DNA from: Escherichia coli
GTDB lineage: Bacteria > Pseudomonadota > Gammaproteobacteria > Enterobacterales > Enterobacteriaceae
Strand: one strand, 5' to 3'
DNA length: 64,000 nucleotides
Assembly (NCBI RefSeq): GCF_003790525.1
Contig: NZ_CP033635.1
A model generated the notes under the pieces. The model did not search any database. It was not told the DNA's origin and saw nothing but the letters and a program-made list of their open reading frames with translations. Both the position numbers and the translations under genes were made by a program. Positions within the stretch are counted from its first letter, which is position 1, and the number at the start of each line of letters is the position of its first letter. Positions 17,069-19,918 of the stretch are shown here, in pieces.

Positions 17069-17152
17069 ATGAAAATTATACTCTGGGCTGTATTGATTAT
17101 TTTCCTGATTGGGCTACTGGTGGTGACTGGCGTATTTAAGATGATATTTTAA
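17069..17152 (+). CDS. yohP: Small membrane protein YohP (27 aa), below ORF-track cutoff
   Basis: Read from sequence: MKIILWAVLIIFLIGLLVVTGVFKMIF stop; approximate. Confidence 0.7.
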   Translation: MKIILWAVLIIFLIGLLVVTGVFKMIF

Positions 17153-17382
17153 AATTAATTAACGTCATCAGATCCGAAAATAACGAGAATATTTCAGTCT
17201 CTCATCCTGTTGCGCTCCTGTCATGTGCATTGCTTCATATCATCACTGGCGCAAGGAGCGCGCAGGGGGCGGCCAATCGCCGCCGCCCCCTGCACCCCCG
17301 GGCTCTGGCGAACAAAATCGCCGCTGCGCGGTACCCTCGGCTTATCCCTTGCGGCTACCGGGTCGGGCGCGAGGTAACATAT

Positions 17383-17393
17383 ATGGACGCTCC
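17383..17393. repeat. Subterminal inverted repeat of the IS (3' side of recombinase gene)
   Basis: ATGGACGCTCC; reverse complement GGAGCGTCCAT found at about 18748-18758. Confidence 0.5.
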
Positions 17394-17399
17394 CGGAAT

Positions 17400-17650
17400 G
17401 CAATGCTTTCTTCAGTTATGTAATAAAACGGGTAGGTGCAGCCATATATCCGGTTTCTGATGGGATTTTTATCCCGAACCATGATGAAATCCGCCAGGCA
17501 GGTACCAATCATCCTCTACGGGCTAACTTGCCCTTGTTACCTCTCGGTGTATCCTGCCTGCGGTCTTACCTGTTTTGCCATCTTCTGAAGTCACCTGCAC
17601 CTACCAGGACGTTAACTTTTTTTCAGCACCTCGTCAGATTGACTGACCTT
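17400..17650 (-). ncRNA. Candidate IS-encoded bridge/seek guide RNA (structured non-coding region downstream of recombinase)
   Basis: Non-coding about 250 nt between recombinase stop and IS end; long-range 11-bp inverted repeat GGTAGGTGCAG (about 17431) / CTGCACCTACC (about 17595) enclosing about 165 nt; IS1111-type elements are reported to encode their guide RNA 3' of the recombinase. Confidence 0.35.
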
Positions 17651-17653
17651 GTG

Positions 17654-18679
17654 TCAGGCGAGCTGCCGAGGTTGATATTCAGTATTGTGTGACAACATTG
17701 ACCACATGATCCTCGCTGTTTTTGCCGCCATGGCGACAACAGCTACATTGTAGTGCTTCCGCTCAAGGAGCCCCTGAAGCCAGGAATTCTCCTCAACCGC
17801 GCCGTTTCGGTTGACCCAGGCGGTAAGTGCGCGTGCGCCGTGAACCAGCAGGTATCGGAAATATCCATCTCCACGTTTGCTGATCCCTCCCAGTTGCTGT
17901 TTCCCGCCGCTGGAATGTTCCTTTGGTGTCAGCCCCAGCCATGAAGCGAACTGCTTTGCGGTACTGAATTGTCGGGCATTACCCACTGCTGCTACCACAT
18001 AAGTGGCCGTTAGCATGCCAACCCCCGGGATCTTGGCCATTCTCTGGCAGGCTTCCTGCGTTCTATACCAGGAGGCCAGAGCTTCTTCTACCTGTTTAAC
18101 TTGTTCTTCAAGTTCCCGGATATGTTTAGACTGTCTGTAGATGCTGGTTCTGACAAAGGGAGATAAACCATTTTCGCCATCCTCCAGAATGGCTGGCAGC
18201 TCACGTGTTAAATGGCTTTGTCCGGCCGCAATCGTAATACCAAACTCAGCAAGTGTGGCTCTTAAACTATTGGCACAGGCAATCCGCTCACGGATAAGTA
18301 TTCCCCGTTCAGTGTGTAACGCTAAAACGGCCTGCTGCTCTTCGGTTTTTATCTGAACAAAACGCATATTCGGACGGGTTACCGCTTCGCAGATTGCTTC
18401 AGCATCTGCTGCATCCGTCTTGTTCGTTTTCACATAAGGCTTCACATACTGCGGAGGTATGAGTTTTACCTCATGACCATAGCGGGTGAATAATCGCGCA
18501 AAATAATGACTGGATGAGCAGGCTTCCATGCCAATCAGACAAGGTTCCAGTTGAATCACAAACTGAACAAACTTAGCCCGGGTGAGCTTTTTACGCAAAA
18601 TAGTATGGCCTTCATGATCGACACCATGAAGCTGAAAAACGTTCTTTGCCAGATCGATACCAAGAGTTGATACTTTCAT
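17654..18679 (-). CDS. IS110-family DEDD transposase/recombinase (341 aa)
   Basis: N-terminal RuvC-like MKVSTLGIDLAKNVFQLHG…IGMEACSSSHYF, C-terminal Tnp domain GLTPKEHSSGGKQQLGGISKRGDGYFR with conserved Ser; resembles IS1111-subgroup transposases. Confidence 0.93.
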   Translation of the reverse strand: MKVSTLGIDLAKNVFQLHGVDHEGHTILRKKLTRAKFVQFVIQLEPCLIGMEACSSSHYFARLFTRYGHEVKLIPPQYVKPYVKTNKTDAADAEAICEAVTRPNMRFVQIKTEEQQAVLALHTERGILIRERIACANSLRATLAEFGITIAAGQSHLTRELPAILEDGENGLSPFVRTSIYRQSKHIRELEEQVKQVEEALASWYRTQEACQRMAKIPGVGMLTATYVVAAVGNARQFSTAKQFASWLGLTPKEHSSGGKQQLGGISKRGDGYFRYLLVHGARALTAWVNRNGAVEENSWLQGLLERKHYNVAVVAMAAKTARIMWSMLSHNTEYQPRQLA

Positions 18680-18747
18680 GTGGACGCCCCTAATTTTTCA
18701 GGACGTATTGCAACGATCCAGTCTGGTACTTTGATACCGTAAAATCT

Positions 18748-18758
18748 GGAGCGTCCAT
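18748..18758. repeat. Subterminal inverted repeat of the IS (5' side of recombinase gene)
   Basis: GGAGCGTCCAT, reverse complement of the repeat at about 17383-17393; a partial third copy (TGGACGCC) lies at the recombinase start. Confidence 0.5.
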
Positions 18759-19018
18759 CTCATTATCCCTGTAAAACGCGCCCTCAGCCCACATCCATGT
18801 GGGCTGCCCCGGCCTTCGGGGAACGCTTCAGCGATTTTGACGCCACCAACACCGGTGCGGTTTGTAATTAAAGCGCAAGAACATCTTTAAATGAAAACGA
18901 ATACTCTACTGCTCCTTATGCATAACATTTCCTTTTAATTGCAACTTTACTCGTCCTTCCGCTTTCAGTAGTGTGTCATCGCGCATTTCGACTTCATCTT
19001 TGCAAGGACTGGGTTTTC

Positions 19019-19918
19019 ATGTTTTCTGGGCTGTTAATCATTCTGGTTCCCCTGATTGTGGGTTACCTCATTCCGCTTCGCCAAAAAGCTGCATTAAGAG
19101 TTATTAATCAGCTATTAAGCTGGATGGTTTACCTTATTCTCTTTTTTATGGGTATCAGTCTGGCGTTTCTCGATAACCTCGCCAGTAACCTGTTGGCGAT
19201 TCTGCATTATTCTGCTGTCAGTATTACCGTTATTTTACTGTGTAATATTGCCGCCCTGATGTGGCTGGAGCGCGGCCTGCCATGGCGCAACCACCATCAT
19301 CAAGAAAAACTCCCGTCGCGTATTGCGATGGCGCTGGAGTCGCTAAAACTGTGCGGCGTAGTAGTGATTGGTTTTGCCATTGGCCTGAGTGGACTGGCTT
19401 TCTTACAACATGCGACCGAAGCCAGTGAATACACCTTAATTCTGCTACTTTTCCTCGTCGGTATTCAGTTGCGCAATAATGGCATGACCTTAAAGCAGAT
19501 TGTCCTTAATCGCCGGGGAATGATTGTCGCCGTGGTGGTGGTTGCCAGTTCATTAATTGGTGGTTTAATTAACGCCTTTATTCTTGATCTTCCCATCAAT
19601 ACCGCGCTGGCAATGGCCTCCGGTTTCGGCTGGTATTCTCTTTCCGGTATTTTATTGACCGAATCTTTTGGTCCGGTAATCGGGAGCGCGGCGTTTTTTA
19701 ATGATCTGGCCCGTGAGCTGATTGCTATTATGTTGATCCCTGGGCTGATTCGCCGTAGCCGCTCGACTGCACTGGGCTTATGTGGTGCGACGTCGATGGA
19801 TTTCACCCTGCCCGTTCTTCAACGTACTGGCGGGCTGGATATGGTCCCGGCGGCGATTGTTCACGGTTTTATTCTTAGCCTGTTAGTGCCGATCCTCATC
19901 GCCTTTTTCTCTGCATAA
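19019..19918 (+). CDS. lysO: Lysine exporter LysO (YbjE)
   Basis: ORF 18971..19918; start MFSGLLIILVPLIVGYLIPL gives 299 aa polytopic membrane protein. Confidence 0.9.
   Translation: MFSGLLIILVPLIVGYLIPLRQKAALRVINQLLSWMVYLILFFMGISLAFLDNLASNLLAILHYSAVSITVILLCNIAALMWLERGLPWRNHHHQEKLPSRIAMALESLKLCGVVVIGFAIGLSGLAFLQHATEASEYTLILLLFLVGIQLRNNGMTLKQIVLNRRGMIVAVVVVASSLIGGLINAFILDLPINTALAMASGFGWYSLSGILLTESFGPVIGSAAFFNDLARELIAIMLIPGLIRRSRSTALGLCGATSMDFTLPVLQRTGGLDMVPAAIVHGFILSLLVPILIAFFSA

Follow-up and report, generated by a model that had tools for sequence, protein, structure and literature searches.

The 64,000-bp stretch of Escherichia coli DNA analyzed here (the window; contig NZ_CP033635.1, assembly GCF_003790525.1) contains, between yohP and lysO (ybjE), an insertion sequence (IS) of the IS110 family that lies inside a native repeat known as TRIP1. 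This block marks one junction of a large inversion, 1.31 Mb on the scale of the K-12 chromosome and 1.40 Mb in strain SMS-3-5, that very probably took place by homologous recombination between two inverted copies of the composite repeat. The ~1.4 Mb that the inversion moves and flips contains dif as well as the inner ter sites, and the event is already known from published studies of SMS-3-5 and IAI39. It marks a clinically relevant lineage that includes these two strains, which we take to be members of phylogroup F.

The break in synteny is evident from the order of the genes on either side of the IS. To its left they follow the K-12 order (yehS, btsRS, mlrA, yehWXY/osmF, bglX, dld, pbpG, yohC, yohD, yohF, mdtQ, yohP), and to its right lysO, hcp, hcr, poxB, ltaE, and ybjT, continuing through to rimO, dgcI, and pdeI, represent the K-12 ybj/yli block in reverse. 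Comparison with K-12 MG1655 confirmed this order, which had been described correctly in a first-pass annotation of the window, as well as the K-12 neighbors that the annotation had named: yohP (2,228,982-2,229,065) is followed by dusC, yohJ, and yohK, and lysO (913,958-914,857) is preceded by aqpZ. The MG1655 positions equivalent to the breakpoints are 915,110 and 2,229,293, a separation of 1,314,183 bp, in agreement with the earlier statement that yohP and ybjE are more than 1 Mb apart in K-12. The genes bordering the junction in the window are as follows.

15409-16845, minus strand: mdtQ (yohG), the final full-length yoh-block gene ahead of the junction, as annotated in SMS-3-5 and KFu014, where this stretch is identical
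17069-17152, plus strand: yohP, the last gene of the side found at 2.229 Mb in K-12; the gene is identical to that of K-12 in alignment
19019-19918, plus strand: lysO (ybjE), the first gene of the side found at 0.914 Mb in K-12, in the reverse of its K-12 orientation

The intergenic stretch between yohP and lysO is 1.87 kb in the window and consists of the IS and two arms of TRIP1. The interval first proposed for the breakpoint (17150-19020) did take in the whole of this region, with the TRIP1 arms in it unrecognized.

To determine how widely the arrangement occurs, 5,426 complete E. coli genomes were searched for the yohP-IS-lysO junction of the window (junction 1) and for the reciprocal aqpZ-IS-dusC junction (junction 2), the query for the latter being a synthetic sequence in which the aqpZ and dusC sides of K-12 were joined. 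Junction 1 was present at full length in 84 genomes, including the finished genome of SMS-3-5, with 99.9-100% identity over 4.5 kb. Junction 2, whose existence had been predicted in the first-pass annotation, was matched at full length in 85 genomes, and in all but one of the 60 listed out of these 85 an IS110-family transposase is annotated between the two halves. At least 22 accessions were common to the 30 best matches for junction 1 and the 60 best matches for junction 2, and IAI39 carries both junctions. In SMS-3-5, the two junctions occupy 0.908-0.913 Mb (junction 1) and 2.312-2.317 Mb (junction 2). The IS copies in that genome (910,011-911,394 and 2,313,795-2,315,178) have their transposases on opposite strands, the inverse orientation that had been proposed, and the inverted segment measures 1,402,400 bp. 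The two SMS-3-5 junctions align to each other over 1,660 bp with 98.3% identity. The arrangement named beforehand as one that would speak against the inversion, yohP beside lysO without an IS, was found in none of the genomes (yohP-TRIP1-lysO, 0/5,426). In ~5,327 genomes TRIP1 is free of the IS at both loci, and none of these genomes is inverted. All of the checks that were run agree with the original proposal that the window contains one junction of a large, terminus-spanning inversion between inverted IS copies.

The position of the IS inside TRIP1 accounts for the orientation of the two copies. TRIP1 (Rudd 1999) is ~266-273 bp in length and rich in guanine and cytosine (GC), with TRIP1a located at aqpZ-ybjE (lysO) and TRIP1c at yohG (mdtQ)-yohI (dusC) in the opposite orientation, and the two are 94% identical over about 270 bp (Li et al. 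2024, PMC10888264). In K-12, the aqpZ-lysO and yohP-dusC regions share such a GC-rich repeat of ~270 bp in opposite orientation, with the uninterrupted site ...GAGGTAACATCCCTGTAAAACG..., and the empty sites at both K-12 loci align to the arms that flank the IS in the window.

~17203-17380, plus strand: left arm of TRIP1, TRIP1c type (yohP-dusC locus), collinear with K-12 sequence between yohP and dusC as far as ...GAGGTAACAT
17381-18766, minus strand: IS of the IS110 family, IS1111 type, 1,386 bp, precisely absent from the empty sites (the two K-12 loci and junction 2 of KFu014)
18767-18846, plus strand: right arm of TRIP1, TRIP1a type (aqpZ-lysO locus), collinear, from CCCTGTAAAACG on, with the opposite strand of the K-12 interval between aqpZ and lysO

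Locus-specific single-nucleotide polymorphisms (SNPs) in the left arm are of the yohP type up to 17249, and the right-arm markers at 18827, 18830, and beyond are of the lysO type. The TRIP1 of the window is a hybrid, with a TRIP1c-type left arm and a TRIP1a-type right arm split by the IS. The target of the IS within TRIP1 is ...GAGGTAACA/TCCCTGTAAAACG... (slash, insertion point), and the IS boundaries are ambiguous by 1-2 bp, as AT is repeated at the insertion point. Both the site and the orientation of the IS in TRIP1 were the same at 8/8 loci inspected, in three genomic contexts. These loci comprise both junctions, both loci in their ancestral state, and a TRIP1-like copy in the asmA-yegH interval; the empty sites, for their part, are clean. 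As TRIP1a and TRIP1c are mutually inverted, occupancy of both by the IS automatically yields inverted IS copies. The earlier recognition of an IS at the junction was sound; what it missed is that the IS lies inside TRIP1, whose inverted pair is native to both loci, and that the inversion had been published before.

Genomes that retain the ancestral gene order revealed the configuration before inversion. The IS was found as yohP-IS-dusC in 10 genomes and as aqpZ-IS-lysO in 8, and five genomes have both ancestral IS loci (CE10, Res13-Lact-PER13-34, XJ6.1, JNEC-KY178, and LR778147.1). Differences between the two loci were followed in the window, SMS-3-5, IAI39, and CE10. In all four sequences, markers to the left of 17250 go with the left flank, whether yohP or aqpZ, and the IS markers at 17771, 17791, 17818, 18377, and 18409, together with those of the right arm, go with lysO or dusC. 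There is a single SNP switch, as one crossover would produce, and the exchange therefore lies between 17250 and 17771.

17250-17771, unstranded: strand-exchange interval for the inversion and possibly for its reversal in CE10, defined by the single marker switch in the window, SMS-3-5, IAI39, and CE10

In SMS-3-5, IAI39, and CE10 the two copies lack informative sites between 17294 and 17771, which limits the resolution of the interval. In agreement with the SNPs, the transposase WP_000868863.1 adjoins lysO in CE10, IAI39, and SMS-3-5, and WP_000868869.1 adjoins dusC in CE10 and IAI39. No Chi sites were present in the window between 15001 and 21000.

Comparison of CE10 with its close relatives indicated that exchange at this block has occurred more than once. 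At ybjD-aqpZ, IAI39, AR_0013, and N32 match CE10 with 100% identity over 2.4 kb, and the lineage-specific SNPs of CE10 are also found in IAI39. As CE10 has the ancestral order whereas these near-identical relatives are inverted, at least two exchanges have taken place, whichever state is ancestral. Two substitutions in the right arm, at 18769 and 18775 (3 and 9 bp to the right of the insertion point), are C/A in SMS-3-5-like sequences and T/G in CE10 and IAI39, and within each lineage the pair is identical in both TRIP1/IS copies. That both right-arm copies share lineage-specific substitutions points to gene conversion between these widely separated loci.

A further variation was observed in KFu014 (NZ_CP091712.1, 2923412-2932403; positions 4249-4631), which has an inverted aqpZ-TRIP1-dusC junction with a clean empty target site. 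The genome has one copy of the IS, at junction 1, and it is the only one with an IS-free junction 2 among the matches listed. The empty site is best read as a secondary loss of the IS, through either its precise excision or gene conversion with an IS-free TRIP1 as donor. Regenerated empty sites were not detected for the IS1111-type element ISEc11 in the seekRNA paper (PMC11187229).

The course of events that we favor would begin with the native ~270-bp TRIP1 copies at aqpZ-lysO and yohP-dusC, inverted relative to one another. A low-copy IS1111-type element would enter TRIP1 at its fixed position and in its fixed orientation, probably guided by an RNA from its 3' non-coding region, and its presence in both TRIP1 copies would provide ~1.66 kb of near-identical inverted homology, the state represented by CE10 and the four other genomes. 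A crossover within 17250-17771, presumably of the RecA type, would then invert the intervening segment. The product would presumably persist because the two breakpoints lie at nearly equal distances from dif, which keeps replichore balance, strand composition, and ter/dif orientation logic. The composite block would have been used in this way at least twice (CE10 in ancestral order, IAI39, AR_0013, and N32 inverted), and KFu014 would later have lost the IS cleanly from junction 2. The contrast with the IS-free genomes, together with the greater length and identity of the composite repeat, favors this IS-dominated repeat as the effective substrate. The junction seems a clean textbook case of a site-specific IS converting two short native repeats into an efficient substrate for inversion with the replichores preserved.

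Several points weigh against this reading. The strand-exchange interval is made up of 131 bp of TRIP1 and 391 bp of the IS, and the exchange is not assignable to the IS itself. Both of the exchanges inferred are confined to the left-hand third of the homologous block, which is mildly surprising if crossovers are placed uniformly (a chance of ~0.1 by rough estimate). We infer the dependence on RecA from the structure of the products alone. The 85 inverted genomes are largely one lineage, probably with only two or three events among them, and because the events are so few the finding that 0 of ~5,327 IS-free genomes are inverted is phylogenetically confounded. Lastly, 1 of the 85 junction 2 genomes has <80% coverage of junction 1.

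Of the alternatives, that which survives best is the view of Li et al. (2024) that recombination is between TRIP1a and TRIP1c alone, in which case the IS would be a passenger that came into the hybrid TRIP1 copies on its own, before or after the event. We consider this unlikely. The two repeats are indeed mutually inverted in K-12, but 270 bp at 94% identity (the value in PMC10888264) is, from general knowledge, a far poorer substrate for recombination than ~1.6 kb at >99%, and none of the ~5,327 genomes having the IS-free pair is inverted. Part of the crossover interval, 131 bp, is TRIP1 sequence, yet the second exchange, that separating CE10 from IAI39, was also in an IS-bearing background. 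Junction 2 of KFu014 is an IS-free hybrid TRIP1, as the passenger view would allow; however, it is the sole example among the matches listed, the IS is kept at junction 1 of the same genome, and an IS-free junction 1 occurs in no genome. Li et al. counted 137 TRIP1a/1c junctions and did not invoke an IS (PMC10888264).

Less likely again is that the RNA-guided DEDD transposase of the IS exchanged strands site-specifically between the identical left IS-flank junctions. The element does belong to the RNA-guided IS110/IS1111 family, and engineered bridge recombinases are reported to invert DNA, including megabase segments in E. coli. However, the natural reaction joins a donor, made up of the abutted IS ends, to a target, and an excision-type reaction on inverted copies (left junction with right junction) would give an empty site and a tandem IS dimer, and this product was not seen, each junction carrying exactly one IS. 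The recombinase-mediated rearrangement that the first-pass annotation had put forward as an alternative is not favored. Both inferred exchanges map to an interval that holds the left IS boundary, although that boundary is indistinguishable from the other ~520 bp of the interval, and an exchange between two left junctions, while it fits the SNPs, corresponds to no described activity. We give a shade less credence still to the broader idea that the TRIP1-embedded IS pair is a natural megabase "flip-flop", in which the exchange is catalyzed or strongly stimulated by the element's own RNA-guided transposase and not by RecA. Transposase action at the left IS-TRIP1 junction would explain why both exchanges lie at the left end of the homology block, and, if true, the pair would be a natural counterpart of the engineered bridge-recombinase inversions.

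That the junction is an assembly chimera, caused by collapse or misjoining at a repeated IS, was also raised in the first-pass annotation and is conceivable in principle since the IS is multi-copy in carrier genomes, but it is excluded for all practical purposes because both reciprocal junctions recur in 84-85 independent complete assemblies (from varied laboratories and technologies, and including finished SMS-3-5 and IAI39), with dif inverted in SMS-3-5 and the inversion reported by three independent papers. The junction should be taken as genuine when synteny breaks serve as flags of misassembly. Recombination between the composite repeats leaves it as an ordinary, well-explained structural variant, with a small chance that the RNA-guided transposase contributed to the flipping.

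The geometry of the inversion around the terminus was analyzed in K-12 and SMS-3-5. In K-12, the breakpoints, one on each replichore, lie at distances of 676 kb and 639 kb from dif (1,590,750-1,590,777), and in SMS-3-5 dif is on the opposite strand (1,656,736-1,656,763), 745 kb and 657 kb from the IS copies. The segment is thus nearly centered on dif, which is flipped in SMS-3-5, as had been anticipated from the suggestion that it is roughly centered on the terminus. In SMS-3-5 dif falls outside the 50 kb around the midpoint of the inverted segment and is located 44 kb beyond that midpoint. Replichore balance is kept because the breakpoints are almost equidistant from dif. Throughout the window the GC skew stays negative and does not switch at 17-19 kb, as expected when a symmetric inversion exchanges material between the replichores. 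The SMS-3-5 inversion covers terE, D, A, C, and B, and the fork trap stays functional (Goodall et al. 2021, PMC8347550).

The inversion has been described previously from two different perspectives. Wang et al. (2017, PMC5372343) found a single inversion, of 1.402 Mb, to distinguish SMS-3-5 from the K-12/CE10 scaffold group; on its flanks is the inverted repeat "E" of 1,606 bp with the transposase WP_000868863.1. Li et al. (2024, PMC10888264), in 6,725 genomes, placed the junctions at aqpZ-yohI and ybjE-yohG and described them as TRIP1a/1c rearrangements, with the IS unmentioned. A preprint on rearrangements in Shigella does not discuss the inversion of the window. The transposase repeat of the one account and the TRIP1 of the other are a single composite block, an IS in TRIP1, and the value of our analysis is mainly corrective, in that both attributions concern this same block. 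Reconciling the two descriptions as one composite repeat is new, if a modest addition. Also new are the numbers of complete genomes with each arrangement, the ancestral state with both IS copies, the evidence of a second exchange, the interval to which the crossover was mapped, and the measurement of how far the breakpoints lie from dif.

Inversions between repeats that are symmetric about the origin and terminus (ori/ter-symmetric) include that between rrnD and rrnE in W3110 and IS-flanked examples in Shigella and Pseudomonas. The inversion described here resembles such IS or rrn inversions in that long inverted repeats are the substrate for homologous recombination, the breakpoints are approximately equidistant from the terminus, and one copy of the repeat is found at each junction (PMC5372343). 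It is unlike inversions between randomly placed IS copies, as the IS is specific in site and orientation and is directed to a native repeat that was already inverted at two loci.

The IS itself was found in 179 of the 5,426 genomes, with 1-4 copies in each. Its features in the window are as follows.

17654-18679, minus strand: transposase gene, 341 amino acids, with DEDD/RuvC-like and Transposase_20 domains
17383-17393, plus strand: subterminal inverted repeat ATGGACGCTCC, 11 bp, the right end in the orientation of the transposase
18748-18758, plus strand: subterminal inverted repeat GGAGCGTCCAT, 11 bp, the left end in the orientation of the transposase
17381-17653, minus strand: non-coding region of 273 nucleotides (nt), 3' of the transposase gene, the position expected for an IS1111-type seekRNA
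17535-17543, minus strand: GAGGUAACA, a guide-like stretch of 9 nt that matches the target flank GAGGTAAC/A up to the insertion point and falls within a predicted internal loop

The transposase matched NCBIfam NF033542 ("IS110 family RNA-guided transposase") with 359 bits (cutoff 140) and the Pfam families PF01548 (E = 1e-14) and PF02371 (E = 4e-24). At this junction the product in SMS-3-5, IAI39, and KFu014 is WP_000868863.1. The extensions at the ends of the IS, TAATGAG (7 bp) and ATA (3 bp), conform to the 7/3 rule given in PMC11187229. The non-coding sequence of the IS comprises 273 nt downstream of the transposase gene versus 85 nt upstream, and the downstream location is that of IS1111-type elements (PMC11187229). 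Folding of the 273-nt region as RNA gave z = -2.98. Of the two target-matching RNA segments expected in this region, one was identified, the 9-nt candidate GAGGUAACA, and an equally long match within 20 nt of the insertion point was found in 215/5,000 dinucleotide shuffles, so that the match is modest evidence. A permissive Rfam scan of window positions 16900-19100 matched no curated bridge RNA or seekRNA family. A hit to the small RNA AgvB at 17175-17235 (22.9 bits, gathering score 56, E = 0.19), which extends from immediately before TRIP1 into the beginning of the left arm, was below threshold and taken as chance. The supplements of PMC11187229 were searched for the element's subterminal inverted repeats, target, and strain names without a match.

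In its organization the element is similar to ISEc11, which is of the IS1111 type (Siddiquee et al. 2024, PMC11187229): the transposase has DEDD and Transposase_20 domains, there are 11-bp subterminal inverted repeats with 7-bp and 3-bp extensions and a long non-coding region downstream of the transposase gene, and insertion is at a single fixed target site and orientation with no true duplication. It differs from ISEc11 in length (1,386 bp versus 1,443 bp) and in having TRIP1 as its target. The bridge recombinases of IS621 and ISCro4 (PDB 8wt6 and 9t56) belong to the same superfamily, and the C-terminal domain of the transposase aligns to them (E = 1.5e-7 and 3.6e-8, respectively), although they are distant in sequence. 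In IS621, unlike the IS of the window with its long downstream non-coding region, the guide RNA is upstream of the gene, and IS621 targets REP sequences rather than TRIP1.

Additional variations in TRIP1 loci were noted in other genomes. The TRIP1-like copy between asmA and yegH is diverged and has the same IS at the same site and in the same orientation in PC-NDM34, 33F4, and FDAARGOS_1285. The five TRIP1 loci (a-e) of Li et al. (2024, PMC10888264) do not include it, and in two of these three genomes a truncated RelE/ParE-type toxin/antitoxin pair also adjoins the IS there. In CFIAFB20120266 (NZ_CP076706.1, 1030595-1036978; positions ~2270-4050), the TRIP1 and IS at dusC-yohP are flipped relative to the flanking genes in comparison to K-12 and CE10. 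The arms of this copy resemble TRIP1a, not TRIP1c, and there is ~45-75 bp of unrelated sequence on each side. TRIP1 seems to occur in either orientation at the dusC-yohP locus, and the forward and reverse counts of Li et al. agree with this. Inversion, rather than deletion, is possible only in lineages in which the TRIP1 copies are mutually inverted.

We also noted differences in gene content between the window and other genomes. The gene mdtQ is annotated as intact in SMS-3-5 and KFu014, both of which are ~100% identical to window positions 16000-20500. In K-12 the gene is a pseudogene, and an internal stop interrupts it in CE10 and IAI39. KFu014 is a close relative, with 99.6% identity to the window over 64 kb (242 mismatches). 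In the gap between ybjP and ybjQ (window ~30058-31296), KFu014 has a truncated pentapeptide-repeat gene, annotated as a partial pseudogene, which falls in the low-GC part of the window (GC 0.46-0.48, 24-36 kb) and is probably the remnant of an accessory insertion. Between rimO and dgcI (window ~59659-60364), KFu014 has genes for a RelE/ParE-type toxin and a helix-turn-helix antitoxin.

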